A DNA stretch of 61,116 nucleotides, the filler included, from Stramenopiles sp. TOSAG23-6 (lineage: Eukaryota), in assembly GCA_900128565.1 (NCBI GenBank). It is 4 parts of 4 records of this genome, joined end to end, with 100 filler letters (N's around TTAATTAATTAA, not from the genome) between each part and the next. Parts side by side here need not be neighbours in the genome. Positions count along the whole stretch, not along the records: positions 45,957 to 61,116 come from LT636126.1; 3 more parts are not named here. One strand, 5' to 3'. The position numbers and the translations under genes are program-made. Under the pieces are notes generated by a model, which saw nothing but the letters and a program-made list of their open reading frames with translations, ran no database searches and had not been told where the DNA came from. The number at the start of each line of letters is the position of its first letter. Within the stretch, counting starts at the first letter, position 1. Shown here in pieces: positions 15,369 to 55,700 of this stretch.

Positions 15369-15370
15369 CT

Positions 15371-31316: not shown

Positions 31317-31870
31317 AGTACCAACTTTATCTAAATTTTATCTGTCTCTCTCTCTCTGAGAATTTTTTTTTGTCAAAATAGCAAGAATGGTCTGTCGGTT
31401 ATTTTTGGGAATCGAATGTTAATCCAAGAAGTATATCTCACAAATACTCCGAGTCAAAATGGACGTTTTGTCGATTTTCAGATTATCTGTCAACAAGATA
31501 AAGAATGACAATGTAAAATAAAGAGATTCGATTTTTCCTTTTGGATCGATCATCGATCGATAGAATATATAATTCAATAATCATGAACATCATGAATCAT
31601 GATCATTGATCTTCGAAGAATCTGATGGAGATCTCGCGCGTTTTCAATCGATCTGAGCCGCTAGGGTTAGGGTTTGATCGATTTCAAAGATGCAAGTCAA
31701 CTCAGCACATTGGTTTTTTCGGTTTTGTGGTGGTCAAGGGAAAAAGTAAAAAAACATCANAAAATAGAACCTCTTTGGCAAAACATTCCGAGCTGACAGA
31801 CTTTCAATTGTAGATTTCAATAGTATAATATTTAGTGGCATTGTTTTGCTGTTCCATAGTGCATTTAAGT

Positions 31871-33898: not shown

Positions 33899-34279
33899 AA
33901 TATAGAATTGTCTTTTATGAAGTAGACACTGAGTGTGAAATACTCGCAGTTTGTGGAATTTTATGTAAAATGTAAAATATACTGGAACGCGTATATAAAT
34001 AAACTCATAGCTGAAGCTAATATTGTGTAAATTATTATTATTACTACTATTATTTTTTTGGTTATTTTTTTGGTACCCGATTGTAAGCGGGACAAAAAAA
34101 TAAAATAAGATGCACAACCCCGTCTCTAGGGGGCATTGAACCTCTGTCTATACTTTAATATCCTGGGTTAACGATATCCAGCTGCTCCTGGTGAGCTGCA
34201 TTAATCTTTGTTATACTTTGGTCATTGCGTTTGTTTATATAAGTCTTATTTTTGTTATAATTTGATCTTTTGGTGTTGG

Positions 34280-34646
34280 ACATATGAGCTTCCTGACGGA
34301 AACATTGTGACCATTGGAGCAAGTCAATTCAAGTGCCTAGAGCTTCTCTTCCAACCATCATTCATGGGTAAAGAAGCTGATGGAATCCATTCAACAGTCT
34401 ACCGAACTATCATGAAGTGTGATGTTGGAGGTCAGACGAAGATTAAGCTGATTTTAATTCAGCATCATAGTCCATAGCAACGTAGCAGTGTTTTTCCTTG
34501 ATGTCACGAACAATCTCACGTTCTGCAGTTGTGGTGAAAGAGTAACCTTCTTCAGCGAGGCACTTCATCATGAACTCNGTCAANTCACGACCAGCAAGAT
34601 CGAGACGCTTAATTGCATGAGGAAGAGCGTAACCTTCATAGATTGG
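34280..34646. pseudogene. Actin fragment split into two oppositely oriented pieces (34280-34426 +, 34425-34646 -)
   Basis: + TYELPDGN...IMKCDV; - [23 protein letters not shown]...[12 protein letters not shown]...SA*SS with an in-frame TAA. Confidence 0.88.
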
Positions 34647-34829
34647 TAAACATCAAACAAAACCAATGTAACCATGGTGGTTACAGGTAAGGCAGCCTTT
34701 GTGGCTACATGTACCCTTTGGTTTTGTTATCTGTTTTATTCCAGCAGTGTAAAAGAGTAGGTGGTTATGAGTGTGTTGTTGCGTTGCGTTGACCCACTGG
34801 TTGTGTTCTTTGTGAATGCATGACCCAGT

Positions 34830-34952
34830 TTCACTTCTGACGCAACCACCCTACTCGCCCCGCGCGACCAACAAGTGGTCGCGGTTGACGGGAGGTGTTT
34901 CCACCACTTGGCCTGCGTCGTTGCCCCACAAAGTGGTTGCATCAGAAATGAA
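34830..34952 (-). other. GC-rich nested stem-loop element (possible structured RNA or small TIR element)
   Basis: 20-nt outer inverted repeat (18/20 match), inner 8-bp hairpin 34863-34883, GGTG-GAAA-CACC on the minus strand. Confidence 0.45.
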
Positions 34953-35192
34953 TGGAAAAATATTTTATTGATGAAAAGAACTAACCATTGATTGGTCTTG
35001 ATTGGTTGAAGACATTTCATTTTTTGAGCATTTTTTGACATCGAAATAATAAAAAATCAAATAAATTATAATTTCGTGTAAATAAATCAACGACACGTGT
35101 CTAAAAATGTTCAAAAGAACGTTGGCCAACGAACGCCAACGAACGTTGGTCAACGTTGGCAAAAGTTTGTACCAATCTGCCATATAAACAAA

Positions 35193-37029
35193 ATGTTTGA
35201 ATGGAAGTGTGACTTCTGTCAGATACACACTTGGGATCAAAAACGAGCAGATGAGGTTGAAAAGAGGAAAGAAAAGGGCAAAGAGTCAAAAAGGAAATTC
35301 AAAACCTCTAGCATTGGCAATCACGCTGAAGGCTACATTACGTGTGCCCATTGTAAGCAAGGATCTTTCCATGTCTCGTGTACAAAAGCAATTGTAAAAA
35401 AGGCTGATGAAACAACGCCCCATGTACCTTGCCCAATGCGGGACGCTATCTTAAGTAATAAAACGGGTCCTATACCCATGGCTTCATGTTGCGTCCTTGC
35501 AAAATCTCTTGAAACTCAAAGAAAGAGCAAGAAAAATCGTTTCACAAACATATTAAAAAAGATGAGAAAGAAATTCGCAAACAAAGTTGACAAAGTCGTA
35601 CGTTTGATAAAGCGGAGAAAGTTGGAAGAACCGATTCAAAAACCGATTCCTCAATGGTATGGTGGTGCTATCGTGCTCCCAGAATACGGTCTCTGCAGCT
35701 TTGCAAATTTCGATTGCATTTCATTTTTTTGTTATGGTGCGCAACATTCTCCTTCAGAAGAAAAAATACATGTATGTTTTTTTTGTAGTAAAAGTTGTAC
35801 CTAACAAAAAAANATTTTTTNTGTACTNANCAAAACATAACAATAAAAATTGAAATACATTTCACAATATATGATGGCATTGTTCATGGTGTTGTCAATG
35901 CTGATACTGCTCGTCTTGCTTCTGAAAGTAATCTTTCAATCGAAGCATTCATCAACGACGCAAAATCCTTTATGTTTGAGAAACATCGGGTTGATTTTAC
36001 AATTCTTAAACGTGTTGAAAAACCCACAATGGTAGACAATGGGAAAAACCCGACACTACAACAACTTCGGGAATGCAAGTATGTTCCTAAAAGCGAAAAG
36101 ATTCAAATGATTCTTGGCGAGAATCAAAATAATGAATATACGCTTTTGGAATTACGAATTCCGGAAAAAACTTGTTTGGATTTAATCAAAGATTTGGATG
36201 AGAATAACGAGTTTGATGATGAAAGTTTTATTTTTTTTTTCAATTTCGAATATTTTTTTGTACGAAATTTTGTACCTAACAATTTATTTTGAAATATTTT
36301 TTTATTTTGAAATATTTTTTCAAAATACATGGTAGTACAATGTTTAGTAGGCTCCCTGAAGAAATATTCGCTGTGTTGAAAAAATCGTTAAGTAAAAAGG
36401 AAAAATACGCTGTAAGTTTCAAAAGAAGTGGTGGCGCCAATGGGGAATTTGACACAGTTTCACCAGCTGTTTTGAAAAATTTCCTTAATCTGCATGGTGC
36501 TCTGCCTCGTAAATCTTCAGCGGTTCTTTTTCGCGTTGACGGGCAAAAACTCTACACGAATTATATATCTCCCTATACGGGAACTGCGAAGTCTTATCCA
36601 TATGGAATGCCACGTGAAGGAGGTGCACTTCGCCCGACATCAGATCTCATTAAATTTGATCAAGGATTTGCAAAGTTTTGCATTTCCAAAGTAATATGTG
36701 CAAAGATAATGCTCGCTTTTGGAAACGTAAACTCTGTTGCAGCTCGTACAATGTTGATGGAACAACAAGACGCAGCTTTCAAGAATAATTCGTATCCATT
36801 GTCTACATTGGCAAAATCGTGTTATATGACTCTCGTCACTCATCCAGTTGGATTTCATGTGGACAGATTCAAAGAACAGTATAGTTCATTGGAAAAAGAA
36901 ATCAAATCTGATAGAATTGAGAACAAAATTCTTTTTGTAAATAAAAGTTATAAGGTTGACAGTTATGATGGTGTTGGTCGTGGAGGTCTCCCAGGCCTAC
37001 TTTACGTATTTGGATTATTTGATTGGTAG
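35193..37029 (+). CDS. Hypothetical protein with PHD-like Cys/His N-terminus; exons 35193-35771, 35873-36220, 36331-37029 (mirror 39490-41326 -)
   Basis: CDFC...CAHCKQGSFHVSC; three ORFs join in frame across two family introns; start codon uncertain. Confidence 0.6.
35772..35872 (+). mobile_element. Introner-like intron GT...AT
   Basis: ATA CAT|gtatg...ttcacaatatat|GAT GGC. Confidence 0.75.
36221..36330 (+). mobile_element. Introner-like intron GA...AT
   Basis: GAT GAT|gaaagtttt...caaaatacat|GGT AGT; full core present. Confidence 0.7.
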
Positions 37030-37036
37030 ACTAACC

Positions 37037-37276
37037 ATTTTGGTACAATGTGTATTCTTTTGGAAATTATGCATCTGGATTTTGTTAGATATGTTTATTT
37101 TTTTTTTCTTTTCAATCTTTACAATAAAAAAATATACATATTTGGTGTTATCTAAAGAAAAAACAATTCTAAAAATTAATTTTATTTTTGTAAATAATCC
37201 AATATTATATACAAATTTTAGTACAACATGTATTCTTTTGGAATCGAATTTTGGTACAATATATATTCTTCTGGAA
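37037..37276. repeat. Three degenerate copies of a ~29-bp unit
   Basis: ATTTTRGTACAAYRYRTATTCTTYTGGAA at about 37037, 37215 and 37248. Confidence 0.7.
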
Positions 37277-40200
37277 CAAATGTTTGTCAAAATTGGATCA
37301 AACTTGAATGTACGTTTTAATCTAAAATTCGAAAAAATATATAAGTTCAAACTGTAAATGAAAAATTTTTTTTTTTTAGTTTGAAATTATTTTGAAAGTT
37401 TGAAATTATTTTTGAAAATGTACATCGTGTCATCGACATCTACTCAGAAAATAACTGGAATGTTTTTATGATCCATCAGATTATTATGATTCAAATTTAT
37501 AAAATGAATACAAAAATATTATTTTGGTGAATTTTTTAGGTATGAAATCTCTTACAAAAAAAAAAGTAAATAAATTTGAAATTAAAAAAAAATAAACAAA
37601 CCTAAAAATATTAATAGGTTTGTCCCATTATAAAAACAACGATACAACAAAAAAAATAATGTTAAAATGTAGTACAAGTAGTTATAACTAGCTAGTATAT
37701 TATATACTCATTCAGAAATCGTTCCGACTTTGAAACCATAACCATACTTTGATTTTTTTTGTACTAAAATATTAAATCGTATAAACTTTCTACGAGTATT
37801 GTGTGATAGTCAGTTTGGATTCCAAAAAAAATATTTTTAATTTTTTTCTCCACTTTTTCGAAGTTAAGTGAAAATTAACCTAGGGTTGGGTTTCAAATAT
37901 TTTTTCCCAACATTTTAGGCTCTATAGTAGTCAATCTGTACCTAAGCCCAAAAGGAGTATTCATTTGAGAACAAAACAAAATGTGCAATTTTTGAAAAAC
38001 AAAAAAATAGAATTGAAATTAATAAACTCGTGACGATTAGAACGTCAAAAAAAACGCTCAAAATGTATCAAAAAAGAAAAAATGAGGTACCACGAATTAA
38101 CGGGTACCCCGAGATATAAAATACGTTTATTCAAAAAAACTCTATCGTTCCGCTGCCAAAGAAATTGCAAGATAGTATAATACAATATTTCAAAAAATTG
38201 AATCGGTTAGGTACAAAATTTCGTACGAAAAAAAAAAAAAAAAAAAAAAAGAAAAAAAATTTTTTTTCTTTTTTTTTTTTTTTTTTTTTTTCGTACGAAA
38301 TTTTGTACCTAACCGATTCAATTTTTTGAAATATTGTATTATACTATCTTGCAATTTCTTTGGCAGCGGAACGATAGAGTTTTTTTGAATAAACGTATTT
38401 TATATCTCGGGGTACCCGTTAATTCGTGGTACCTCATTTTTTCTTTTTTGATACATTTTGAGCGTTTTTTTTGACGTTCTAATCGTCACGAGTTTATTAA
38501 TTTCAATTCTATTTTTTTGTTTTTCAAAAATTGCACATTTTGTTTTGTTCTCAAATGAATACTCCTTTTGGGCTTAGGTACAGATTGACTACTATAGAGC
38601 CTAAAATGTTGGGAAAAAATATTTGAAACCCAACCCTAGGTTAATTTTCACTTAACTTCGAAAAAGTGGAGAAAAAAATTAAAAATATTTTTTTTGGAAT
38701 CCAAACTGACTATCACACAATACTCGTAGAAAGTTTATACGATTTAATATTTTAGTACAAAAAAAATCAAAGTATGGTTATGGTTTCAAAGTCGGAACGA
38801 TTTCTGAATGAGTATATAATATACTAGCTAGTTATAACTACTTGTACTACATTTTAACATTATTTTTTTTGTTGTATCGTTGTTTTTATAATGGGACAAA
38901 CCTATTAATATTTTTAGGTTTGTTTATTTTTTTTTAATTTCAAATTTATTTACTTTTTTTTTTGTAAGAGATTTCATACCTAAAAAATTCACCAAAATAA
39001 TATTTTTGTATTCATTTTATAAATTTGAATCATAATAATCTGATGGATCATAAAAACATTCCAGTTATTTTCTGAGTAGATGTCGATGACACGATGTACA
39101 TTTTCAAAAATAATTTCAAACTTTCAAAATAATTTCAAACTAAAAAAAAAAAATTTTTCATTTACAGTTTGAACTTATATATTTTTTCGAATTTTAGATT
39201 AAAACGTACATTCAAGTTTGATCCAATTTTGACAAACATTTGTTCCAGAAGAATATATATTGTACCAAAATTCGATTCCAAAAGAATACATGTTGTACTA
39301 AAATTTGTATATAATATTGGATTATTTACAAAAATAAAATTAATTTTTAGAATTGTTTTTTCTTTAGATAACACCAAATATGTATATTTTTTTATTGTAA
39401 AGATTGAAAAGAAAAAAAAAATAAACATATCTAACAAAATCCAGATGCATAATTTCCAAAAGAATACACATTGTACCAAAATGGTTAGTCTACCAATCAA
39501 ATAATCCAAATACGTAAAGTAGGCCTGGGAGACCTCCACGACCAACACCATCATAACTGTCAACCTTATAACTTTTATTTACAAAAAGAATTTTGTTCTC
39601 AATTCTATCAGATTTGATTTCTTTTTCCAATGAACTATACTGTTCTTTGAATCTGTCCACATGAAATCCAACTGGATGAGTGACGAGAGTCATATAACAC
39701 GATTTTGCCAATGTAGACAATGGATACGAATTATTCTTGAAAGCTGCGTCTTGTTGTTCCATCAACATTGTACGAGCTGCAACAGAGTTTACGTTTCCAA
39801 AAGCGAGCATTATCTTTGCACATATTACTTTGGAAATGCAAAACTTTGCAAATCCTTGATCAAATTTAATGAGATCTGATGTCGGGCGAAGTGCACCTCC
39901 TTCACGTGGCATTCCATATGGATAAGACTTCGCAGTTCCCGTATAGGGAGATATATAATTCGTGTAGAGTTTTTGCCCGTCAACGCGAAAAAGAACCGCT
40001 GAAGATTTACGAGGCAGAGCACCATGCAGATTAAGGAAATTTTTCAAAACAGCTGGTGAAACTGTGTCAAATTCCCCATTGGCGCCACCACTTCTTTTGA
40101 AACTTACAGCGTATTTTTCCTTTTTACTTAACGATTTTTTCAACACAGCGAATATTTCTTCAGGGAGCCTACTAAACATTGTACTACCATGTATTTTGAA

Positions 40201-43200
40201 AAAATATTTCAAAATAAAAAAATATTTCAAAATAAATTGTTAGGTACAAAATTTCGTACAAAAAAATATTCGAAATTGAAAAAAAAAATAAAACTTTCAT
40301 CATCAAACTCGTTATTCTCATCCAAATCTTTGATTAAATCCAAACAAGTTTTTTCCGGAATTCGTAATTCCAAAAGCGTATATTCATTATTTTGATTCTC
40401 GCCAAGAATCATTTGAATCTTTTCGCTTTTAGGAACATACTTGCATTCCCGAAGTTGTTGTAGTGTCGGGTTTTTCCCATTGTCTACCATTGTGGGTTTT
40501 TCAACACGTTTAAGAATTGTAAAATCAACCCGATGTTTCTCAAACATAAAGGATTTTGCGTCGTTGATGAATGCTTCGATTGAAAGATTACTTTCAGAAG
40601 CAAGACGAGCAGTATCAGCATTGACAACACCATGAACAATGCCATCATATATTGTGAAATGTATTTCAATTTTTATTGTTATGTTTTGNTNAGTACANAA
40701 AAAATNTTTTTTTGTTAGGTACAACTTTTACTACAAAAAAAACATACATGTATTTTTTCTTCTGAAGGAGAATGTTGCGCACCATAACAAAAAAATGAAA
40801 TGCAATCGAAATTTGCAAAGCTGCAGAGACCGTATTCTGGGAGCACGATAGCACCACCATACCATTGAGGAATCGGTTTTTGAATCGGTTCTTCCAACTT
40901 TCTCCGCTTTATCAAACGTACGACTTTGTCAACTTTGTTTGCGAATTTCTTTCTCATCTTTTTTAATATGTTTGTGAAACGATTTTTCTTGCTCTTTCTT
41001 TGAGTTTCAAGAGATTTTGCAAGGACGCAACATGAAGCCATGGGTATAGGACCCGTTTTATTACTTAAGATAGCGTCCCGCATTGGGCAAGGTACATGGG
41101 GCGTTGTTTCATCAGCCTTTTTTACAATTGCTTTTGTACACGAGACATGGAAAGATCCTTGCTTACAATGGGCACACGTAATGTAGCCTTCAGCGTGATT
41201 GCCAATGCTAGAGGTTTTGAATTTCCTTTTTGACTCTTTGCCCTTTTCTTTCCTCTTTTCAACCTCATCTGCTCGTTTTTGATCCCAAGTGTGTATCTGA
41301 CAGAAGTCACACTTCCATTCAAACATTTTGTTTATATGGCAGATTGGTACAAACTTTTGCCAACGTTGACCAACGTTCGTTGGCGTTCGTTGGCCAACGT
41401 TCTTTTGAACATTTTTAGACACGTGTCGTTGATTTATTTACACGAAATTATAATTTATTTGATTTTTTATTATTTCGATGTCAAAAAATGCTCAAAAAAT
41501 GAAATGTCTTCAACCAATCAAGACCAATCAATGGTTAGTTCTTTTCATCAATAAAATATTTTTCCATTCATTTCTGATGCAACCACTTTGTGGGGCAACG
41601 ACGCAGGCCAAGTGGTGGAAACACCTCCCGTCAACCGCGACCACTTGTTGGTCGCGCGGGGCGAGTAGGGTGGTTGCGTCAGAAGTGAAACTGGGTCATG
41701 CATTCACAAAGAACACAACCAGTGGGTCAACGCAACGCAACAACACACTCATAACCACCTACTCTTTTACACTGCTGGAATAAAACAGATAACAAAACCA
41801 AAGGGTACATGTAGCCACAAAGGCTGCCTTACCTGTAACCACCATGGTTACATTGGTTTTGTTTGATGTTTACCAATCTATGAAGGTTACGCTCTTCCTC
41901 ATGCAATTAAGCGTCTCGATCTTGCTGGTCGTGACTTGACNGAGTTCATGATGAAGTGCCTCGCTGAAGAAGGTTACTCTTTCACCACAACTGCAGAACG
42001 TGAGATTGTTCGTGACATCAAGGAAAAACACTGCTACGTTGCTATGGACTATGATGCTGAATTAAAATCAGCTTAATCTTCGTCTGACCTCCAACATCAC
42101 ACTTCATGATAGTTCGGTAGACTGTTGAATGGATTCCATCAGCTTCTTTACCCATGAATGATGGTTGGAAGAGAAGCTCTAGGCACTTGAATTGACTTGC
42201 TCCAATGGTCACAATGTTTCCGTCAGGAAGCTCATATGTCCAACACCAAAAGATCAAATTATAACAAAAATAAGACTTATATAAACAAACGCAATGACCA
42301 AAGTATAACAAAGATTAATGCAGCTCACCAGGAGCAGCTGGATATCGTTAACCCAGGATATTAAAGTATAGACAGAGGTTCAATGCCCCCTAGAGACGGG
42401 GTTGTGCATCTTATTTTATTTTTTTGTCCCGCTTACAATCGGGTACCAAAAAAATAACCAAAAAAATAATAGTAGTAATAATAATAATTTACACAATATT
42501 AGCTTCAGCTATGAGTTTATTTATATACGCGTTCCAGTATATTTTACATTTTACATAAAATTCCACAAACTGCGAGTATTTCACACTCAGTGTCTACTTC
42601 ATAAAAGACAATTCTATATTTTATTTTGCACAATCAGCGTACTTTTTCTTCCGACGTTTCTCCTTTTCAGCAAGCTTCTTCTTTGATTCTTCTTTCTTGA
42701 TTACTTCATTTTTATGTTTTATTTGTGTTATTATCCTACGTAGGTCTTGGCGTAACCTTGCAGCATCTTGAGGTTCATATGCATTAGGTTTTAGAACTTT
42801 GTCAAAGCGTTTTTTTATCTTTAATTTACTCTCGCCTTTCGCCTTCATCTTTGACATATGTAAGGTTGCAACTGAAAGACGATCTAAGTCAGTTAAAAGT
42901 ATTTCAACATTTTTACATACATATACTCCACAGTCACAAGAATTATCCTGTTGTGGCGACTTTGTAGTCGCAGCAAATATTTCTTTGATCGACAAACTAG
43001 TTTTGAGATTCTTTCTTGCTTTTAATTCAGAAGTCATATAATTAAATAATTGTTTTTTCACCTTTTGTAAACTATGACACATGAGAGAATCAAATAATGC
43101 AATTCCAAAGACAGGTTTATGAACGGTTGATTTTTTTTTGAAACGACCCATCATATTTCCTGGATTACAAATCACTGCAAGGCTCCAATGTAAACGCATA

Positions 43201-45770
43201 TTGATCGGGAAAAAAAGAAAGTCATATGAAAATATATCAATATTTTTAGTCCAAGACTTCACGTCTTCATAACAACCTTGAATAAGTCTCTTGAAAAAGT
43301 GAGAACTAAAAATGTAAACAGTTGCTTTTGACTTTTTTTTTTTCTTTTTTTGCTTTTTTTGTAAGCAATATCGAAGATAAAAATCAATGACATTATCATT
43401 GAGAAATTCACCGGGATCAAGGCGATCCATATCACCGTGTGTGAATGTAATAGAATCTCTCACAGAATTTTCAGGTGCATATACTGTATAAACTTTATTG
43501 GGTTCTTCTCTAATGTGAGAGATATTTCTGCGCGCTAATCGTGTACTAGCACGAGTTGACCTGGAGGAAAGTATATTTGTATTCGATGTATCAATACTAT
43601 ATAAAGGAGATGTTTGGTCATTTTCAACATGAGTTTCTTTTTCTGTATCATTTGTGTACGAATTCTTCAATGTACTGGTATCACTAACAGTTATAATCTT
43701 ATATTCATACAACTTTTGTAGTAACGCGTAATCATTGCTACAAAGCAATTCCCGAGATTTTACAAAGTCAATTACACTTAGTTGTATCTCTTCAAAATGG
43801 CAATTCTTATCTGATTTATCAAATGTCAATATTAAAGTGTTATATTTATCATCTAATGTTTTTTCACTTTGAAATACAGCAATATGATCATTATCACTAA
43901 AACCAGTTTCTTTCATATCAACCCACTTAATTTTGTATTCTTGAAGGCCATCACTTGTTGGCTCTGGTATTATGCGTACACCAGATAACGAAATTTCGAG
44001 AGAATAATTGTAATCAGCATTCGTATTGGCCTCGATGATTTCTTCTTCTGGTTCAATTTTCTTTATACATAAATTACAAAGTGCATCATTAAGTACGCCA
44101 GTATTATTTTCTTTTTCGTTATTTATACTATTTATAGGGAGGCACATAAAGTATGCTGATTTTACTGGTACTTGAAAACAAAGATCAACATTGTCCACAT
44201 GTTGAACAATCTTTAATAGCTCAGACTGTGATAAGAGTGCACTACATTTATATCTCGCAGCTGATAATGGTGCACCTTTGAGACTTTCTCCGGTAATTTC
44301 AACATCATCGTCATCAGTGAATTCACAGCTACTACTACTATCTTCACTAGAGGAACAAAGATCGAGTGCTGTATTAGAACTTCCGTGTGCATTTTTTTTA
44401 CGTTTAGATCTCCTTGTATTTGTCGAATGTGAACTTTGATACTGATTAGAGGACGACTGTGATATCTGAGCTTTTGGCGACTTTCGCTTATTTGAACTAC
44501 TTGTACTTGTGGGAAACGATCTCATTTTACGGACATGTTCTTTGTCTTTGAACTTCTTCTTGGGATGTTCTTTGTCGAATATCTTGGCATGTTCATTGTC
44601 AAAACTCTTCTTTGCTTCTCTTTGGAAGCTCCTACCTCTCTTACTCATACTTAAATGCACTATGGAACAGCAAAACAATGCCACTAAATATTATACTATT
44701 GAAATCTACAATTGAAAGTCTGTCAGCTCGGAATGTTTTGCCAAAGAGGTTCTATTTTNTGATGTTTTTTTACTTTTTCCCTTGACCACCACAAAACCGA
44801 AAAAACCAATGTGCTGAGTTGACTTGCATCTTTGAAATCGATCAAACCCTAACCCTAGCGGCTCAGATCGATTGAAAACGCGCGAGATCTCCATCAGATT
44901 CTTCGAAGATCAATGATCATGATTCATGATGTTCATGATTATTGAATTATATATTCTATCGATCGATGATCGATCCAAAAGGAAAAATCGAATCTCTTTA
45001 TTTTACATTGTCATTCTTTATCTTGTTGACAGATAATCTGAAAATCGACAAAACGTCCATTTTGACTCGGAGTATTTGTGAGATATACTTCTTGGATTAA
45101 CATTCGATTCCCAAAAATAACCGACAGACCATTCTTGCTATTTTGACAAAAAAAAATTCTCAGAGAGAGAGAGACAGATAAAATTTAGATAAAGTTGGTA
45201 CTTTATAAATGAGCAATGCAGTCACTTTACATTATAAATGAGCAATGCAGTCACTTTACGTTGCTCTCGGTATAGTATCCTTCACACAGGCTCTTCTTTC
45301 AAGTATATTTGGTGCATATTCAACTCGTATATTTAATGAAGTCTTTGGTCTTGAACCACTAGGTTTCACTGTAGCGCTCACGTGTTTTTCCTTGTAACTA
45401 ATGCAGTCAACAATCCAATGATTGGAATATACCTCGACGTACAAATAAGAAAGAAAGTACACTTGAAAACTTAAAACTCGCGTGTATTCAATAATTAGTA
45501 GTGGTTTCGGGCTTGTCTTTGTATTTGTAGTATTACCGTGGTATCAATGGGGAAATTCTGACTCATCTTCACAAAGTGTATTAGCCATTCATTTCTTTTC
45601 TTCGCTTTTCTTTTTTGATTGTTTCTTTACTGCCTTTACACTTACTGAATCAGCGTTATCAGCAGAATGTACTACCTATTCTGAAACAAAACGAGCGTCA
45701 TTGACACATTGGAGAACTTTATGTAGTGGAATTGGTGTTTTATTTGGGCTTCCATTAGCTGAAGTTGCAT

Positions 45771-45856
45771 GTATGTTTTATTTTTTTTCAAATTCTAAAA
45801 ATTTTTTTTCGTACGAAATTTTGTACCTAACAATTTTTTTAGATTTTTTTTTGAAA
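45771..45856 (+). mobile_element. Introner-like intron, 3' end lost at contig end (mirror 30663-30748 -)
   Basis: GCA T|gtatgtttt plus core. Confidence 0.75.
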
Positions 45857-45956
45857 NNNNNNNNNNNNNNNNNNNNNNNNNNNNNNNNNNNNNNNNNNNN
45901 TTAATTAATTAANNNNNNNNNNNNNNNNNNNNNNNNNNNNNNNNNNNNNNNNNNNN
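45857..45956. other. Artificial contig linker
   Basis: N44-TTAATTAATTAA-N44. Confidence 0.98.
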
Positions 45957-46007
45957 GTACCTAACAAATTTTAGTTTTTTTTTTTGAAATATTTTTCCAA
46001 AATACAT
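45957..46007 (+). mobile_element. 3' part of an introner-like intron ending AT
   Basis: gtacctaac...ccaaaatacat|ACA GTT. Confidence 0.75.
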
Positions 46008-47680
46008 ACAGTTTCTGAAATTTGGTCCGAACTCGAAACAAAATATCCTGGTCTTTGTCGAAATGATAATCATTCCCATGACATGTTACCTACAAGACGC
46101 TATGGGCTAGCAGATAAACAAGCAGTATTTACACGTCAGATTCTACGGAACAGGTATGTTTTTTTTTTTTAATTATTTGAAGTTTTTTTTTCGTACGAAA
46201 TTTCGTACCTAACAAAAACAAAAAAATATTTTTTTCACAATACAGACAATCTAAGAAATTGTATAGTGCTCTTAATACAATTTTACCTCCTTGGGATGGT
46301 TTCACGTATGATTGTCAGGATATATTAGATAATCCCAAAACTAGTCAAGTAACTGCGAATAGTGTTGTATGTTTTCAAAATTGATTTTTTTACCTATTTT
46401 TTTTTGGATCAATTTTTTTCATAGAAAAAAAATATTTTTTTTTTTCATTGAAAATTTCATACCTAACGATTTTTTTTTCTTGCTCAAAAAAAATATATTT
46501 TTCACAATACATGTAGTTTCACAAGATCGATGGTGCCTTTACCCTCCATCTTTAGGTAATCCTCAACGGCAGACAAATAATCCTGGCGCACATTTAGACA
46601 TTTGTCCGTGGCAATATTTGTCTATTAATGGGCCAAATCAAACACGAAATGTACGTTTTCATCTTGAATTCATTTTTTTTTTAGTACGAAATTTCGTACC
46701 TAACAAAAAACAATTTTGAAATATTTTTACACAATACATTATTCTGAAGAAACAAATATTGATAATTTAAGGTATAAAAATGGTCTATATGATTTTAGAG
46801 CAGAGATCAACTGTGTGAAAGGAAAATTTGGTCCACATAACCAAGGTATTCTCAACCTCATTGATGCATGTTTTCATCATTCTATTTTTTACTAAAAATT
46901 CTTTGTATTACATTTTGTAATTTTTTGACAAAAAAAAAAGTTTTTTTCAAAAATCATTTTTTAAATTTTTTTTCGTACCAAATTTTGTACCTAATTATTT
47001 TTTTTACTCAAAAAAAAAATATCTTTCACAATACATAATCGTGCTGAAGATGGAGGGACAGCTGTCGTTCCAGGATTTCATAAATGCTATCCCAAATGGA
47101 GCCAGTCTCTTGGTACTTATAAGGAAAATCGAGTCGGTCAACGTCGCCGAGGGAATTCTTACGTTTTTTCTAATCCCTATGTATATTTTCATTATGAATT
47201 TTTTACCTAAAGTTTTTTTTTCATACGAAATTTTGTACCTAACGAATTTCAAATTTCTGAAATGTTTTTTCACAAAATATGATCCTATTCATAAATTAAT
47301 GAGAAGGGTTACGTTACGAGCTGGATCACTTTTGTTATGGAATCAATGTACTGTTCATGGAGCACAACCTAATACATCTGATAGGCCACGTGTAGCACAA
47401 TTTGTTCGTGGTTTTCGATTTGTACGTTTTCAAAATTGAATGTATCTTTTTTTTTAGTGCGAAATTTTGTACCTGACAAAAAAATTAAATTGAAAATATT
47501 TTTTCACAATACTTGGTGAACTTTCTGACGAAAGAAGAAAAGCAAGAGCTAAAAAAATATTACAAGAAATTAAACAAGCAAATTTACTAAAAGAATTAAC
47601 ACCTCTATCCAAACACGTTTTTGGTATTGATGAAGATTATACATCGTACCAAAACCTTAACCCNAANCCNACTGTTTNAA
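46008..47680 (+). CDS. PhyH-like Fe(II)/2OG dioxygenase, 5'-partial; exons 46008-46153, 46246-46366, 46513-46650, 46740-46865, 47037-47180, 47281-47421, 47515-~47680
   Basis: Spliced product has VSQDRW, HLDICPW (HxD), QGILNLIDNRAEDGGTAVVPGFH, AGSLLLWNQCTVHGAQPNTSDRPR; stop obscured by Ns. Confidence 0.85.
46154..46245 (+). mobile_element. Introner-like intron GT...AG, flanking repeat AG
   Basis: AAC AG|gtatg...cacaatacag|A CAA. Confidence 0.9.
46367..46512 (+). mobile_element. Introner-like intron GT...AT (exon ends TT, mismatch case)
   Basis: AGT GTT|gtatg...cacaatacat|GTA GTT. Confidence 0.8.
46651..46739 (+). mobile_element. Introner-like intron GT...AT
   Basis: CGA AAT|gtacg...cacaatacat|TAT TCT. 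Confidence 0.85.
46866..47036 (+). mobile_element. Introner-like intron GC...AT
   Basis: ATT GAT|gcatg...cacaatacat|AAT CGT restores LIDNRAEDGG. Confidence 0.85.
47181..47280 (+). mobile_element. Introner-like intron GT...AT
   Basis: CCC TAT|gtata...cacaaaatat|GAT CCT. Confidence 0.85.
47422..47514 (+). mobile_element. Introner-like intron GT...TT, flanking repeat TT
   Basis: CGA TTT|gtacg...cacaatactt|GGT GAA. Confidence 0.82.
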
Positions 47681-47774
47681 AAAAAAANGAAAAAANGAAA
47701 NGAANCCATGATCAGTGTAGAAGGAGATCTGACTTTCAGTTGATTATAAATTAATTTACTTTATTCATAATATT

Positions 47775-49037
47775 TTATACTTCTGGTTGAAGTTCTTCAA
47801 TTTCATGTTCAGGTTCAGGTTGAATTATAACATCTTTGAGACGGTTTTCCCCAAAAGGGAGCTCTGCCCCAGGAACCCGATACACAATATCTCGGTTGCC
47901 GCGGCGAAGAAGGCTTTTATGAACGTTTTTCTTTCCCGATATATATTTTTCCCCAATATTATGAATTAGATCCAGCAAAACATGGGGCACTTGAACAAAA
48001 GCAAGTAATTGCTCAGCATTCAAAAGTTTAATATTACGAAAAACACAATTAGGGTTGGCAAACTGAAAAGTTACTCGTCCGTATTTTTCAAACATAGTAC
48101 CACTCAATCCGTACTTGTCTTCGATCCTAAATGACATATTACCCGTGGGTATACTTTCGCCTCGGGGGCCAAATTTTTCAAAACATTCATTTAGGCCAAC
48201 GTTTCCCAATCCTACAGCTTCAGGCATTTGGCTAAATAAATCAAATATATGTCCAGCTGTTTTGTTCAATTTGGCTATCTCGCTTGCGTCCTCTGGACTT
48301 CCTATCATAGCCGTTAACAAAATATCTGGATTTTCTCGCATAAACTCTGGAACGTATCCGAAATCCAAGTCGTCTTCTAGAGCGGTCTTTACTACGTCAG
48401 CATCATGTTTCAGTCTGTCAGATAAAAGTTGAAACATCTGACTTTTGATTCCACTAGACATGAACCTGGCTTTATCATCAAAAATATTCAAATGATTGCA
48501 ATTTTCTTTTAGAGATTCATATTGAAGCATTTCACTAGGGTGACAAATTCCTACGCGAAGTGATAGCATAGCAGATATAACCTCCTCATCACATTGCATG
48601 TCAACTGGAATTCTTTCATAGTTCAGTTTAGAGCGGTATAATGTCGCGACAAGAACATCTCGATCAACCTGTAAAGCTCTCGGTATTTTTTTAAGAATCC
48701 AATCGCAATCCTCTGCTGTAGATTCAGTATCAGCATGTCTTTTCAATAGCGCAATTACCACGTCTTTATCGTTTACCAACTCGCCAACGTCTTTCCATAT
48801 AGTGCTTGAAGTGTCATAATAATTGAAACGAGTAACCTCTTTTATAACTTGGTCCTTATCATGCCAGTCTATTGCGTCGCGCAAAATAGAGCTTTTATTG
48901 TAAGAATCAGGATCGCCCATTTTGTCGTGCCAAAGAGAGTGGCGCCAAATAGAGCTGTTATCGTCAGAATCCATTGCTTTGGTTGTAAAACAAAGAATCG
49001 CCATCGCGCTTAACACAAGTATAGCTTTTGAGATCAT
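47775..49037 (-). CDS. Signal-peptide protein with DUF4116-like repeats
   Basis: MISKAILVLSAMAILCF; repeats IPRALQVDRDVL, LSDRLKHDADVV, VPEFMRENPDIL. Confidence 0.7.
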   Translation of the reverse strand: MISKAILVLSAMAILCFTTKAMDSDDNSSIWRHSLWHDKMGDPDSYNKSSILRDAIDWHDKDQVIKEVTRFNYYDTSSTIWKDVGELVNDKDVVIALLKRHADTESTAEDCDWILKKIPRALQVDRDVLVATLYRSKLNYERIPVDMQCDEEVISAMLSLRVGICHPSEMLQYESLKENCNHLNIFDDKARFMSSGIKSQMFQLLSDRLKHDADVVKTALEDDLDFGYVPEFMRENPDILLTAMIGSPEDASEIAKLNKTAGHIFDLFSQMPEAVGLGNVGLNECFEKFGPRGESIPTGNMSFRIEDKYGLSGTMFEKYGRVTFQFANPNCVFRNIKLLNAEQLLAFVQVPHVLLDLIHNIGEKYISGKKNVHKSLLRRGNRDIVYRVPGAELPFGENRLKDVIIQPEPEHEIEELQPEV

Positions 49038-49361
49038 TTTCAAGGTGATAAATTTTGATGATTACTTGGATCAATCAAAATTGTGGTACCTGTCTATAGA
49101 ATCTAATCTATAGAGACACACTGACTGACGCTGACTGACTTCTTGGTAAAAAGTACACTATGAAGTTCACCCTTCTTTCAGCATTCTTTGAAACTTCTTT
49201 TGAAATCAGGACAAAACTCACTATACAAAATCACGAAATCCGATAATAAAAATAAAAAAGTGATCGACACGTGCTGGTCATACTTTTAGTTCATCCTATT
49301 ATTTCACACTAGTCCCTGAAATACTTATTCTTGTTCGAATACCAATACATTTTCTTTCACG

Positions 49362-49679
49362 ATGCGCATCTTTGCTGCCGTAAGACGCATAGCTACACAT
49401 AGTAGAGGCAGTGCTCTTCACACTAGTAGAAAGTCACATCGAGGTCCTCACTTTGGAAACGTTGGTGGAGAGTCTATGAGTCAAGGGTCAATGGGTTCAA
49501 CTATGGGCGGCTCCGGTAGAAGGTCCATGGGCTCAGATAGTTTAGGAGGCTCTGGGACATTCCGTACTCATGCTCAACGCAATGCTTTACGGCGTGCGAA
49601 AATTGGTGGTATGGTAGCTTTAGTTGATTCACGTGACTTATTCCTTGCATGCTTGGGCGATGACGACGACGGAACGTAA
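49362..49679 (+). CDS. 105-aa protein with mitochondrial-presequence-like N-terminus and DDDDGT C-terminus
   Basis: Arg/Ser/Ala-rich acid-free N-terminus; higher GC than flanks. Confidence 0.6.
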   Translation: MRIFAAVRRIATHSRGSALHTSRKSHRGPHFGNVGGESMSQGSMGSTMGGSGRRSMGSDSLGGSGTFRTHAQRNALRRAKIGGMVALVDSRDLFLACLGDDDDGT

Positions 49680-50431
49680 GTTATTTTTTACCTCATACAC
49701 TTTGTGTTTCTTTCTTCCAAAATAGTTTCCCTTTGTTTCATTTAGTAAGTATACACCTCACCGAGTTCTCCACATTCCATCATATCATGAGATTTAATAG
49801 TTAACGAGTAATTTGCGGTTTTATTTTCTCATATACAGATAATAAGTTGGCTGTCATGTTCCTCTTTTGCTCGTGAGCTCTGGTCTCTCTATGGGTATTA
49901 GTAGTACTCTCAGTCTTATTGCTGGTCTATTTGGTGTGATATGTCAGTTCTCACAAAGCCCACTCCACCTGCGTTGTCGATTATTTGGAATCATGTGTCT
50001 ATAAATACGAACGATTCTCCTGTATTAAGTATTACTCTCACACAGGACGGTGACGCCATCTCCATTTTAAATATTTTCATTTGCAATTTTCATCTTCAAA
50101 ATAAATTAATATATTAGAATTTAGATTGTTTTTATTCGATAATATATTCTACTTTGAAACGTACTATTCAACCTAGCCGGCTTGCTTGCATGATCGAATT
50201 AGTGGCCTAAATGTAAGATATGCAGTTAACATCATGGTCATGGTCATGGAAACAAACGAATTCATCGAGCGGGCTAGTCACACGTGGCATTAAAATTTAA
50301 AATACTACTTTGGAATATACGGGTACCGGTATAAATGCTACCTTGGTAGTCGAGTCACTTTTGTCCAACGACCGATTAAACCCTTTATTGCTGGACATCG
50401 ATCGATCAATCGATCAATAGCGGATACTCTA

Positions 50432-51424
50432 ATGAGTGATGTCGAAGAAGAATATCAAGTTCCACTTGAAGCTTTCCCAAAGGAAGGTCCTCGGCACTAC
50501 ATATTTCGCCGAGTTCATGGGGAAGATGTACTTCAAAATGTGAAAGAATTGAAATGTGAGGGCGGTCTTGAAGTCTCTTCTAAAGGGGATAGCGCGCTTC
50601 TTTACGCCAAGTTTGGAGAGGAAGGGGGGCATGGTGGTGAAATTCGTGCTATCATGTACAACATAGATCCGGAAGATCTGAGTTACAACAACTCCAGAGA
50701 AGTTTTTCCGAGCCACAAAAAAGCATTCTTTCGTGCTGACGCTTCAACAGCTTGGGTTGACTACGGCGTGTGGAACGGTCCCATTCACCGCAGTGGAGGG
50801 CTCGGTTGTGGATTCATAGGTCAGGTTTGTGAGTTTGGTGCCCATTACGCAGAAGCAGGGAAAGTGGGTGACCTGGCGGAAGATCCTTGGTCATTCAGGG
50901 GAATTACTGCACTTATCAGTGTGGTGGACGAGCCACCGATTGAATCGATTCCTGAAGAACATCGACATTTAATACCACCTGAATTTAAACCGCTACCGAA
51001 AGGTACCCTTTTATTCACTTTATATTTCGATGATGGATCAGGTCACTATGGTAAAAGCGCGCCTATTCCTTTAAATCTTATGTTTGAACCAGTAAAGGAA
51101 TGTGATGCTACTGTATCAGTTGTACGTCTTCTTTTTCAATTTCGAACTTATTTTTTTTGGTACGTAATTTCGTACCTAACAATTTTTACAAAAAAAAAAT
51201 TCACAATATATGTACCGCCCCACGTTGCGGAGCATATCCGGAGCATAAAGAAAAATAAGAAAAAAGATCAAAAAGTTGGAGGTGACAATCATGAAAAAGT
51301 TAGAGATGACAATCAGATGAAAAAAAGTATCAATAAAAGAGACGCATCTACTCAGGAATTTCAACCAAATCAAAAAATGAAGCAAAATAATCCAAACAAA
51401 AAAGCTAAACATAATATAAAATGA
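50432..51424 (+). CDS. Hypothetical protein; exons 50432-51121, 51212-51424
   Basis: Long ORF with coding-like composition; reads through a 90-nt family intron. Confidence 0.7.
   Translation: MSDVEEEYQVPLEAFPKEGPRHYIFRRVHGEDVLQNVKELKCEGGLEVSSKGDSALLYAKFGEEGGHGGEIRAIMYNIDPEDLSYNNSREVFPSHKKAFFRADASTAWVDYGVWNGPIHRSGGLGCGFIGQVCEFGAHYAEAGKVGDLAEDPWSFRGITALISVVDEPPIESIPEEHRHLIPPEFKPLPKGTLLFTLYFDDGSGHYGKSAPIPLNLMFEPVKECDATVSVVRLLFQFRTYFFWYVISYLTIFTKKKFTIYVPPHVAEHIRSIKKNKKKDQKVGGDNHEKVRDDNQMKKSINKRDASTQEFQPNQKMKQNNPNKKAKHNIK
51122..51211 (+). mobile_element. Introner-like intron GT...AT, 3n and stop-free (exon ends TT)
   Basis: TCA GTT|gtacg...tcacaatatat|GTA CCG with core. Confidence 0.75.
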
Positions 51425-51612
51425 AGATTTTCACATCTACAAAAGAAATGATTTAGGTACAAAATTTCATAGTAAAAAAATACTTTCAAATTCAAGCTGT
51501 TGCATCAAAATATAAATTTTATTTATTTGTCTCTGAAATTTCTTCATTTTTTTTCAATTTCAATTTTTTTTATTTGTTTTTCGTACAAAATTTTGTACCT
51601 AGCTAACAAAAT

Positions 51613-52665
51613 TCACTCAGTTTTTAAAAACGATACAAACTTTTCTAATACATTTGGAGGCGAAATACCAAATGCATAACCTACGGAGCACAAATTTTTC
51701 GCTAGAGCAGCTGATAATACTTTGTGAAAAAATATTTCAAGAAGAAAAAAAATGTTACTTTTGAAATATTTTGAAAAAAAAAAAAAAAAAAAAAATGTTA
51801 GGTATGAAATTTCTTACGAAAAAAAAACGATGAAACGTACATGGAATTCCAATCTTATTTCGTTCTCGACTCTCATTCATCTCCTTTTCTCCCGGTACTA
51901 AAATAGGACCTGGCGCTTCTTCAGCAAGTGGTAGCCCATGCAAAATATCGCACAAAGTTTGCATTCTTTCAGCATAATTTTCAGTTCCAAATTTTGCAGG
52001 ATCAACACAGATAAAATATTGTAAAAAAATATTTCAAAAACATTTTTTGATTTTTTTTTGTAAGGTACGAAATTTACTATGAAAAAAAAATGAAATGAAA
52101 GAAAGCAATTTACAAACATTGACCTAATTCCGCTGGTTCTTTTCTGTCTTTTGTATTTGGATTCATAACCATACCCAGTTGTGTACTAAATTTAGCTGAG
52201 TGACCTGCAAATACACCACAGAGCATTTCAACCATCATGTATCATGAAAAAATATGTCAAATTCGAAATTTGTTAAGTATAAAAAATGTATACTAAAAAA
52301 ATTTGAAATTGAAAAAAATAAATGTGAAATTGGAATGGATGATAAAAATATACATTCCAAGACAATATCCTTTATAACCATTGCCATGTATTGTGAAATA
52401 AAATGTTTACAGTTTGAATTTGTTAGGTACCAAAGTTTGTAACAAAATGTAGTACCAAAAAAAAAAAAAAAACTCAGGTACAAAATTTTGTACGAAAAAA
52501 AAATACAGGTGTTTCGGCTCCACCCAATGGAAGTAAGCCTCCGCCAGCAAATACTTCTTTGCACACACGAGTAGGACGACCTTTGCTGTCGAGACCCCAT
52601 TGAGAGTTTTTTGGTAGAGGTTTTCCCTCTCGCATATAAACTTCAACTTTACCTAATGGAATTAC
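51613..52665 (-). CDS. Ldh_2 (type-2 malate/L-lactate dehydrogenase family) C-terminal half; exons 52665-52507, 52385-52354, 52236-52114, 52013-51841, 51716-51613
   Basis: GKVEVY, WGLDSKGRPT, LLPLGG, GYKGYCLGMMVEMLCG, LGQCFICVDP, ILVPGEKE after splicing. Confidence 0.85.
51717..51840 (-). mobile_element. Introner-like intron GT...AT
   Basis: CCA T|gtacg...cacaaagtat|TA TCA. Confidence 0.8.
52014..52113 (-). mobile_element. Introner-like intron GT...TT
   Basis: TGT TT|gtaaa...tacaatattt|T ATC restores GQCFICVDP. Confidence 0.85.
52237..52353 (-). mobile_element. Introner-like intron GT...AT
   Basis: GGA AT|gtata...catgatacat|G ATG restores LGMMVE. Confidence 0.85.
52386..52506 (-). mobile_element. 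Introner-like intron GT...AT, two cores (exon ends CT)
   Basis: ACA CCT|gtattt...cacaatacat|GGC AAT. Confidence 0.8.
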
Positions 52666-52770
52666 ATATTGAAAAAATATATTTAAAGTATACAACAACG
52701 TTAGTTTTTGTACCATTACCAAAATTAACAAAATTAGCAAAATTCGTTAAAAAAACAAAAATTAAAATGT

Positions 52771-55700
52771 ATCGTGTTTATCTGTATTTGAAGAAACAAA
52801 ATTTGTATTTTTTTCATTTTCTGTAGATTTAGATATATCAGCAGAGGTGTGTAGAATAGACACTAACTTCGCATTGCCAATAACACCCATCCATCCTGAC
52901 ATGTCTGACTTTCCTGATTGGGTGATAACACCAACAGACAGATCGGGCTCACTTGATGCAATTTCATCTTCAATTCTCACAGAAAAACGCCAAACATGAA
53001 TGCCCGAATGATATCCTGAGGAAGCTGCCATTAGTTTCCATCGCTTTGACACAGTAGTTAAATCTGGTTCATCATTAAATGTTATTTCATTGATTCGATT
53101 TGGCAGTCCATGACAATCACTCATTTTTTTAGTCGTAGTTTGTGGTTCTGGAGTATGGGGACGACAATCTGACGACACAGTTGCAGAAAAATCGGGTGGC
53201 ACTCCAAACATATCGGATATATCAAGATCTCTTGTATTTTCACTGGCACCAGACCTCCAAAGTCTATACTGTTGTATTGTAGAGTCTGATTGTGACGCTT
53301 CTTCGTCTTCAATAATGTTTCGGGTTTCTCGTACATCGTCTCTATTGCCGCTAAATGAAAGTGATGCATCTTCCCAAGTCAGTTCATTCAATCTTTCATA
53401 ATCTCCCTCACCAGTATCATTTGTAATATCTTCATCTAATGCTTTCTCGTTTTCTGTATCATTTTGTGGTATATTTTTTGACACCCGACTTGTCCGAGAA
53501 TTCATCATAAAAGTTCGATTCCCATTTTCAAGAGAAAAAATTGCAGAGTTCTTATCTCTAGCATTGGAATCTTCGGGTCTAGGTACAGGGGTTGACATAC
53601 ATGGATGCATCATAAATTTTGGATCAAAATGAAGCCTTTCCTTCAGTCGTCGGGAAGGTGTAACAAGGAAACTGTTATTATAATTTTCGGTACGAGAATT
53701 TTGAAAAGTAATGTCGATTTCTCGATATGTATAAAAAGTAGGTAAACCAAAGCCTGTAGAACGACTTTTCGGCAATTGATGTATTGTGAAAAATATTTTA
53801 ATTTAACATTAGTTAGGTGAAAAATTTTCTATGGAAAAAAATAAATAAAATTAATGATGTAAACGTACATGGGATGGATACTCGGCTCGTTTTTTATCTG
53901 TATTACCTTGAGAATAACAGTCTTTAATAATTTCCATAATAGAATTATCATATTGCTCCTTGCTTTGATGATTTCGATCATACCAAGGATCACCGCTACC
54001 AGAACTTTCCGATGAAGTAATTCTATAATTTTCACCTTCTTCAAGACAAACAGTCTTGTTCTTTTTATCCGTTCTGCAGCATGATTCATGCATTACATCA
54101 TGTATTAGTTCTGAATATGCATAACCAAGTTCATCTCGAGGACTATTATCATCAATACTTACTTCCACTAGAAGTTCACGAGTACGACATAACCACAATC
54201 TCACAACATGAGTCCGCTGTAATTGACCCCCATTTACATCAGGGTTCACTGCGCGACCAAGAGCTTTCAATTCAACACATTTACGTGCAACAAATTCAAA
54301 CCCAACCTGTCCGTCCCAGTTATCTCTCACACCTGTATACAATACCTTAAATGTATTTGCCAGTGCAGAAGGTCCAGCAGACTCTTCCCATATCATCGCA
54401 TCAACACACTCGAGTGCATCTTTAGATTGTTTTGCGGCTGGTAGCATTTCAACCACTTTAGATACTGAGGCACAAAGTTGTACTATACTTGGTAACATTA
54501 CGGATGCGAGCCATAAACGAGATGACAAAAGAGATAACGCAGTTGCAAAGGTCGGTAGTAAAGTACCAACGAAAGAGCCTTGTAATAATCGCTCTACTAA
54601 AACAGGCGGTGCTCCGCAATCGAGTTGTTTCCGCGCCGTATCCAACAGTCGTCTACAAGAATATAATAATAAACTCCCATAACGCCTCAGAACTTGACAC
54701 GGTGGTTCAGTAGCAGCGCGACAAGATGCCGCTAGTGAAACTAAATGCCTTTGGTATGCATAGAGCAGAGCATCGGCAGATGCTATCAGAGTGCATTCAT
54801 CTTTTTTTAATTTATATTTTACATTCATCTTATCGCTACCAATAAACGAAGCTTCATCATTACTTGTGTTTTTTTCCGACGATGCATTAATATCAAAAAG
54901 AGACTTCTCAGACACCATAGAAAAAAGCATTGAAAGTAGGTCCGCAATATGCAACAATTCTTCCTGTGAATAACCAATACCATTACGAGTTTTTTTTATT
55001 GGGCGTATATTTTCATCTGCAATAGATATACTTTTTTCTTTACTCAGTATCTCTTTTTTGCCAGATCCATTAGTTGGTTTGATACTATCGATTGGATTTA
55101 CCGAAACTTCAGCAATGTAATCTATAGGTAAAAGGGACACAACGCCTTTTGCGGATGTAGAGAACCGCATCAAAAGACGGTTGAGTAATGCATATCTAGG
55201 TGAATTAATATCATATGGTGTATTTCTATGTTCTTTTATCAATGATGCTAATAGCTCGAAGCGCTGTCTACTTGATGGGTACAATAATTCTAATCCAACT
55301 TCAACCGCATTTACAGCCTCGAGTCGAACATAATGCATAAGCTTATCATTTCCAATTGCATACTTCAATGTAGAATTTAATATTTCAAACGCAGAAGAAC
55401 TTAATCCAACTTCTTCGGGTCGGACGTGAGCGTCTATCAACCTTTGTAAATGAAATGATACAAGTCGGAGGAGCGAGACACAGATAGATTCAGCCTGTTC
55501 TCTATCATTGTCTTCATTATCATTGTTTTCAGGTATATTCTCAGCGAGCGGCAGTTGCACATCAAGTAGCCTACGTATTTGTGAAAAAGCAGCTAGAGAA
55601 ACCTGGAGACAATATGGAAGTTCTAAATCTATAGTAGATGGGGAATATTCATCTGATATTCTCCCTTTAGCCTTTTGTTTATTTACTGCGACCGATTTCT

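Follow-up and report, generated by a model that had tools for sequence, protein, structure and literature searches.

The stretch analysed here, referred to as the window, comprises 61,116 nucleotides (nt) of the genome of Stramenopiles sp. TOSAG23-6 (GenBank assembly GCA_900128565.1) and strings together four contigs, each about 15 kb long, with N spacers in between. The fourth contig (LT636126.1) carries all three introns at the centre of this work, which start at positions 46367, 51122 and 52506 and whose exon-side and intron-side flanking dinucleotides differ (TT/AT, TT/AT and CT/AT, respectively). They interrupt a PhyH-like dioxygenase gene, a gene without an assigned family and an Ldh_2-family dehydrogenase gene, and they belong to a large intron family that raises the question of its splice register (Table 1). 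The assembly as a whole spans 21.1 Mb in 6,236 contigs and contains a eukaryotic 18S ribosomal RNA. Its matching gene models bear the source label MAST, which suggests an uncultured marine stramenopile.

Table 1. Features at the three mismatch introns and in their host genes (positions along the window)
Feature	Position	Strand	Remarks
Intron, GT register (GT...AT), 146 nt	46367-46512	+	TT at 46365-46366, AT at 46511-46512; Val
Branch-site motif TACCTAAC of the 46367 intron	46460-46467	+	Function predicted from the motif
PhyH-like dioxygenase gene, 3′ part, six family introns	46008-47660	+	PF05721 on one exon
Family intron, matched AG/AG flanks (GT...AG)	46154-46245	+	
Family intron, AT/AT	46651-46739	+	
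Family intron, AT/AT, GC donor	46866-47036	+	
Family intron, AT/AT	47181-47280	+	
Family intron, matched TT/TT flanks (GT...TT)	47422-47514	+	
Intron, GT register (GT...AT), 90 nt	51122-51211	+	TT on the exon side; Val or Asp
Branch-site motif of the 51122 intron	51173-51180	+	Short palindrome before it
Host gene of the 51122 intron, no assigned family	50432-51424	+	
Intron, GT register (GT...AT), 121 nt	52506-52386	-	Exon flank CT; Pro or His
Branch-site motif of the 52506 intron	52422-52429	-	
Ldh_2-family dehydrogenase gene, C-terminal part, three further family introns	51700-52650 (ends approximate)	-	

A sequence-only reading of this stretch had proposed that a 2-nt repeat makes the splice register ambiguous between GT...NN and NN...AC and that the three mismatch introns can decide it. 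The coordinates, flanks and codons it gave for these sites were reproduced, as was the presence of AT on the intron side of all three. Cutting before GT yields Val, Val and Pro at 46367, 51122 and 52506, and a 2-nt shift yields Asp, Asp and His. Since all three flank pairs differ at the first base only, complementary DNA (cDNA) from these junctions would exclude the 2-nt shift, not a 1-nt shift to the left; the cut may also slide to the right by 3, 4 and 1 nt, respectively.

A profile-free search with the 46367 gene returned 24 matches, one of which (P0005) is an automatic model of the same gene; among the 23 others, 19 have the motif and could be aligned, and four lack it. The junction column is of aliphatic type in all 19 (I 11, V 4, L 3, M 1), with Asp in none, and a hidden Markov model (HMM) built from these homologues scored the GT form at 97.3 bits versus 91.5 for the 2-nt shift. 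Removing the six introns of the PhyH-like gene in the GT register gives a stop-free product of 320 amino acids, collinear with four homologues. For the 51122 gene, the single match among 198 candidates was the unspliced, self-like read-through, with no Pfam family and no usable Atlas hit. This intron is in frame and stop-free, which would allow its retention or the use of an AG 21 nt downstream. The read-through protein P0001, encoded by a Logan contig, contains residues that require both TT and AT, which suggests that the mismatch is not an assembly error, provided that the Logan contig is independent of the assembly. The 52506 intron has a weak donor (GTATTT), and three Ldh_2 homologues carry Glu at its junction, a variable loop position at which Pro and His are consequently indistinguishable.

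Introns of the same kind were called in approximately 1.0 Mb of sequence (the window plus fetched loci, partly overlapping). From 488 anchors, 278 candidates had both end motifs, 229 were unique, 177 were retained by score and reading frame, with the frame chosen while the two ambiguous bases were masked, and 176 were free of N. Dropping three mis-calls (L015 +2995, L051 +6523 and L075 -2518) left a final set of 173 introns, to which the counts below refer unless 176 is given.

The introns have a median length of 99 nt and a YTAAC-core branch motif, as in U2-type introns, with the branch A at a median of 38 nt from the end. The genome contains 11,047 occurrences of the branch 9-mer GTACCTAAC versus 179 of the reversed control (duplicated contigs inflate these counts), and 1,870 of the donor 12-mer CAT|GTACGTTT versus 35. 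Donors were GT in 161 of 176 introns, followed by AT (6), GC (5), GA (2), GG (1) and TT (1). Acceptors in the GT register were AT in 139, TT in 12, GT in 7 and AC in 2, with four singles, and the canonical AG was present in only nine. Such rarity of AG is a departure from the canonical GT-AG subtype and does not lower the case for a U2 mechanism. Across the whole genome, AT comes after the acceptor motif in 4,344 places and AG in 213 (~20:1). The flanks favour C before and G after AT, and a YAY triplet stands on both sides, which together with the mostly non-AG acceptors resembles Fritillaria-type splicing. An AG between the branch and the called end is skipped in 46 introns, suggesting that the 3′ end is probably set by the T-tract and the CAMAATAY motif.

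Individual members of the family deviate in their own ways. AT donors in the GT register were found at L040 -4071, L040 +2171 and L057 +3235; the first of these also ends in AC, which makes it a genuine AT-AC intron, one that lacks U12 signals. At 51157-51175 of the window and in most family introns, the branch motif shares its first bases with a short palindrome, which has a mean folding energy of -2.3 kcal/mol versus -0.6 for shuffled sequence and may gate U2 binding. The branch region is tandemly duplicated in introns at 7180-7350 of the window and at locus L029, and the 52506 intron (52386-52506, minus strand) has a second, partial copy of it immediately downstream of its weak donor, reminiscent of an element that is nested or truncated. 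A search for wider spread recovered one metagenome contig with an AT/AT intron (L107) and none among viral contigs, a search from which near records were possibly omitted.

Mismatched flanks occur in 40 introns, in 31 of which the choice of register changes the protein and in 17 of which the flanks differ at the second base; the latter junctions are a better test of the register than the three introns described above. Seven of the 31 protein-changing mismatches could be judged, all in favour of the GT register, Pex19 tentatively. At a junction within a Myb repeat, the GT register keeps the Arg of c-Myb and both shifts give Cys. At an MFS_5 junction, it gives the Gly found in all eight aligned homologues (of nine), while the shifts give Val or Met; the corresponding HMM scores were 40.2 for the GT register and 35.4 and 35.3 for the shifts. 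These two junctions thus exclude the 1-nt shift as well. At an EF-hand junction, Phe aligns with Phe in the GT register, and at a Pex19 junction Arg presumably fits better than the Trp of the shifted reading, the solved-structure alignment ending one residue before the junction. A 2-nt shift creates junction stops in two of 176 introns (in MatE and Aa_trans genes) and the GT register in none; a search with the MatE exon found no solved relative. Codon phase was related to the first base of neither flank (p = 0.47 and 0.78, a test without power), and codon-usage scores at single junctions lay within ~1 bit of each other, the stops excepted.

If the cut instead lay two bases upstream of GT, the introns would be of an NN...AC, mostly AT-AC, kind removed by a minor or transformed spliceosome. 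The earlier claim that most introns can be read as AT...AC stands insofar as 111 introns are readable as AT...A(C/T); it does not extend to the 51122 intron, which would end in AT, not AC. The likeness to U12-type AT-AC introns includes a branch containing CCTAAC. The shifted reading ends in TAC, which likewise places a pyrimidine at -3 and an A at -2, and the P-complex model tolerates A+1 with C-1 (10.1101/212811). Set against this are the lack of Asp among the 19 homologues at 46367, the two junction stops and the broken Myb, MFS_5 and EF-hand residues. The U12 donor has the consensus RTATCC, and here, as the sequence-only reading had noted, it is absent: no such donor, ATATCC included, was found in any of the 173 introns in either register, and the 8-mer ATATCCTT occurs six times elsewhere in the window. 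The branch also lies ~38 nt from the end, unlike in U12-type introns, and G+5, present in 159 introns in the GT register, is present in 5 and 2 in the shifted ones, 2 being the count for the 2-nt shift. U11, U12, U4atac and U6atac were absent from our searches of the genome, which is weak evidence given an incomplete assembly and prokaryotic search controls. Taken together, we consider the shifted register very improbable.

The small nuclear RNAs (snRNAs) of the major spliceosome point the same way. The only U1 candidate found, present on two contigs (E 6e-13), has a 5′ arm in which positions 2, 5 and 9 deviate from the Rfam consensus; these face donor positions +7, +4 and -1, the last of these exonic. 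The facing donor bases are T at +7 in 170 introns, a pyrimidine at +4 in 165 and T at -1 in 156, and CAT|GTACGTTT, read in the GT register, is complemented by the arm without a mismatch. On average, 9.1 of 11 donor positions pair with the arm when read in this register and 2.6-3.7 at an offset of 1-2 nt, compared with 6.9 for the consensus arm. The canonical U1 arm occurred at background level only (24 vs 21, hits uninspected). Donor G+5 and T+6 pair with U6, and T+6 is present in 169 introns. The U6 ACAGAGA, U2 GUAGUA and U5 loop 1 sequences are canonical. U1 apparently co-evolved with these donors, to judge by the complementarity of the two. The loops of stem-loops 1 and 2 of the candidate are also divergent. 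U5, U2, U1 and U4 are encoded in one head-to-tail cluster of ~640 bases (L010:9-645, contig C1146), with U6 elsewhere. Among protein factors, one U2AF2-like gene is present, as are the residues aligned with Gln1594 and Arg1604 of the Prp8 alpha-finger, in surroundings that match the human sequence; U2AF1 and Prp18 were not found in this incomplete genome, which is no evidence of their loss. With homologues, stop codons, U1 and U6 in agreement on GT, the register, earlier regarded as ambiguous, is no longer open and is most likely GT...AT rather than U12-type AT...AC.

The dinucleotides flanking the introns are identical in 133 of 176 cases; 20,000 permutations gave 96.6 on average and never more than 111. 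AT/AT flanks account for 111 introns; among the 56 with non-AT flanks, 22 are matched, as TT/TT, GT/GT, AG/AG, AA/AA or TG/TG. The subtype letters at position +10 are linked with those close to the 3′ end (p = 2e-16), and the median nearest-neighbour score is 0.69, reaching 0.94, versus 0.15 after shuffling, which also destroys splice signals. The intron ends are weakly complementary, with three or four of the four terminal bases pairing in 135 introns, a stretch too short to decide the matter. By flank matching and subtype linkage, the introns appear to form a single introner-like family whose insertion duplicates 2 nt of the target site. Two distinct Harbinger-type DDE_Tnp_4 genes (L141 and L142) were found without the intron ends in the fetched stretches, other transposase families being unsearched; one of the two faces a second open reading frame. 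The transposon group ISL2EU, described as targeting A|AT|T, duplicating AT and carrying DDE and YqaJ functions (PMC4482050), was considered as a source and rejected: the flanks favour C and G around AT, and no element with matching ends was found (YqaJ unsearched).

These matched flanks and shared subtypes could also reflect strict splicing signals in the GT register without a mobile origin, the flank match being selected. Canonical-looking GT-AG introns with the same branch context exist (one example, L014), and neither a mobilising transposase nor an empty site was found. This alternative is at odds with the co-travel of letters at opposite ends and with nearest-neighbour scores that reach 0.94, and we know of no splicing rationale for the matched TT/TT, GT/GT, AG/AG, AA/AA and TG/TG pairs; we therefore deem it unlikely. 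The explanation that combines U2-type introns, the GT register, an introner-like origin and a co-evolved U1 appears highly probable to us, and the register taken alone more so. As far as sequence comparison can establish them, the register at several junctions, the U1 arm and the bias towards AT are its firm parts.

Several points weigh against that combined explanation. Homology leaves 51122 and 52506 undecided and only 46367 is decidable without RNA, so the expectation that the three mismatch introns would settle the register was borne out at one of them, the 1-nt shift remaining at all three. No spliced read or cDNA was seen for these introns, whose register is read from comparison; two seawater metatranscriptome runs from one study contain 0.15 and 0.10 of the words sampled from positions 45200-54000, which is not junction evidence. 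The calling motifs were seeded on GT donors, and the judged mismatches are seven of the 31 that change the protein. The U1 candidate scores 54.1 bits, under the cut-off of 69.5, and its expression is predicted only. No link was found between the family and a transposase, an empty site or a long terminal repeat, and the 22 acceptors without A(-2) are unexplained by the P-complex model. Finally, frame-keeping GT-AG pairs lie near each of the three introns, and 32 of the 173 have their first post-branch AG in frame and no more than 30 nt beyond the called end.

The last of these points would fit GT donors whose true acceptors are nearby AGs, with canonical splicing that adds or removes a few residues; the AG located 21 nt downstream at 51122 is of this kind, and the public model P0005 uses such a pair, slid by 4 nt (46371-46516). 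That splice gives Phe where the homologues have V 13, M 3, I 2 and L 1, and P0005 omits conserved segments that the GT-AT model keeps. At 52506 the rival pairs delete or break a conserved GG...GYKG stretch, and the 20-fold excess of AT over AG after the acceptor motif speaks against them generally. We judge this possibility improbable. A cut one base to the left (TG...YA) is compatible with all three named junctions, and the weakly complementary ends would suit a non-spliceosomal, structure-guided removal like that of euglenid non-conventional introns. The former is excluded at the Myb and MFS_5 junctions, and the strong branch motif, the fit to U6 and the exactly matching U1 arm indicate a spliceosome rather than the latter, so that both together carry only the slightest probability.

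Mismatched pairs are asymmetric: 28 introns have AT on the intron side only (X/AT) and six on the exon side only (AT/Y); before the three mis-calls were dropped the counts were 29 and 7 (p = 3e-4). As had been suggested earlier, AT is thereby shown by the flank counts to be the favoured intron-side dinucleotide. A drift of intron ends towards AT had also been put forward, and it fared less evenly. The exon flank is ancestral at 46367 and at the Myb and MFS_5 sites, which attributes the AT to the intron, and X/AT introns lie further from their nearest neighbours than AT/AT introns do (median 0.596, n = 28, vs 0.708, n = 111; p = 2e-4). Compared with matched non-AT introns (0.707, n = 22), the difference gave p = 0.10, some copies may have brought their own AT, and drift is accordingly not shown. 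Several mismatches differ at both bases. A drift towards AT by later change on the intron side seems likely from these comparisons.

The following mechanism could account for these observations. The major spliceosome would recognise a donor (C)AT|GTAYGTTT, the branch motif of Table 1 ~38 nt from the end and an acceptor YAT|G, so that the canonical MAG|GT...YAG|G is retained with T for G at both -1 positions. Introns would be copies of a ~100-nt introner-like element with GT...AC ends that duplicates 2 nt, mostly AT; splicing out the element together with the downstream copy would restore the codon exactly, and the duplicated dinucleotide would become the acceptor. The 3′ end would be set mainly by the T-tract and CAMAATAY motif of the element, not by AG, and U1 would have changed along with the donors. 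Copies that landed on other dinucleotides would tend to gain AT on the intron side, producing the TT/AT and CT/AT mismatches. Recognition of the acceptor in the yeast P complex involves three contacts (10.1101/212811): a G(-1)-G(+1) pair, a pair between A(-2) and the branch A, and the reading of the -3 pyrimidine by Prp8 Gln1594. A YAT acceptor would thus keep two of the three contacts: A(-2) would still pair with the branch A and the -3 pyrimidine with Prp8, while U would stand for G opposite G(+1). Tentatively, and with slightly more doubt than confidence, we propose that an introner invasion rewrote the splicing code, changing G to T at both -1 positions, with U1 following and the 3′ end measured from the element motif; this would include TT, GT, AA and TG acceptors, possibly without U2AF1, and an unchanged Prp8 alpha-finger.

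Among the closest known parallels are the non-canonical U2-type introns of the tunicates Fritillaria borealis and F. pellucida, in which most introns escape GT-AG, AT is the commonest 3′ end (44% in F. pellucida and 34% in F. borealis), YAY stands before the donor and at the intron end, and the minor spliceosome is absent (PMC13326754). A transposon origin with target-site duplication has been proposed for these introns in the available text of another study (PMC11282704). The present family shares the predominance of AT and the YAY on both sides; minor snRNAs were likewise not found here, which is weak evidence in an incomplete assembly. Unlike in Fritillaria, donors here are nearly all GT with one tight consensus, and U1 carries three substitutions, whereas the U1 5′ arm of F. 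borealis is described as strictly kept (PMC13326754). Fritillaria-type splicing is also characterised by duplicated, divergent U2AF1 and U2AF2; the incomplete genome here yielded one U2AF2-like gene and no U2AF1. As the host is a stramenopile-like protist, the two systems would have arisen independently.

In introners of Micromonas pusilla and others, the element supplies one splice site itself and gains the second through the duplication of its target site (PMC11282704, PMC12130899, 10.1101/2022.06.06.494994). Many similar short introns and precise removal are common to both; unlike the introners described there, the family here co-opts an AT or other non-AG acceptor, duplicates 2 nt, has a possible terminal inverted repeat of only ~4 nt and is linked to no transposase. 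A U1 arm altered to complement an atypical donor is described in the excerpted text for Entamoeba, Mastigamoeba and Physarum (10.1101/2022.06.08.495308), and the core ACGUAC found here equals that given for Mastigamoeba. The changes reported in those excerpts face intronic +3/+4 (and +7), whereas here exonic -1 is faced too, and the present organism differs from the three in being intron-rich with non-AG acceptors. Our literature search, mostly outside subscription sources, returned no paper on GT-AT or similar non-canonical introns of this kind in stramenopiles; stramenopiles are unmentioned in the main-text passages available from two introner surveys, one of which includes uncultured stramenopile assemblies in its input table. 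The family looks like a non-canonical variant of U2-type splicing, introner-like and with a U1 that apparently co-evolved, and suggests that the splicing machine itself adapted to an invading mobile-intron family.

The AG acceptor is among the most conserved eukaryotic signals, and genome-wide exceptions come from few lineages. If the explanation is true, this is an independent protist case, solved unlike that of Fritillaria, with U1 changed and U6, U2, U5 and the Prp8 alpha-finger unchanged. It would make testable both the replacement of G-G by G(+1)-U(-1) in exon ligation and the idea that mobile introns drive change in a core snRNA. The public gene models P0005 and P0030 read into these introns or force GT-AG ends, and the predicted proteome of the lineage is therefore likely to be wrong at many genes.

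Other features of the window concern its assembly and gene content. Two contigs, at 1-15268 and 30663-45856, are duplicated in mirror image, and the latter matches its own reverse complement at 99.99% identity; both are probably artefacts of amplification or assembly and raise copy counts. Short TAACCC-type repeats lie within contigs at 44830 and 47655 and adjoin apparent gene breaks. The Ldh_2 gene lacks its N-terminal half, and a large SPRY-domain gene lies directly upstream (52650-53802, minus strand), a join that may be chimeric. An intron-free frame of ~5,100 codons with Gly/Ser/Thr-rich repeats occupies 15317-30610 (plus strand). At 5783-7560 (plus strand), a nitrilase-family (CN_hydrolase) exon is followed by an adenosine-deaminase exon across one family intron, suggesting a fusion protein.

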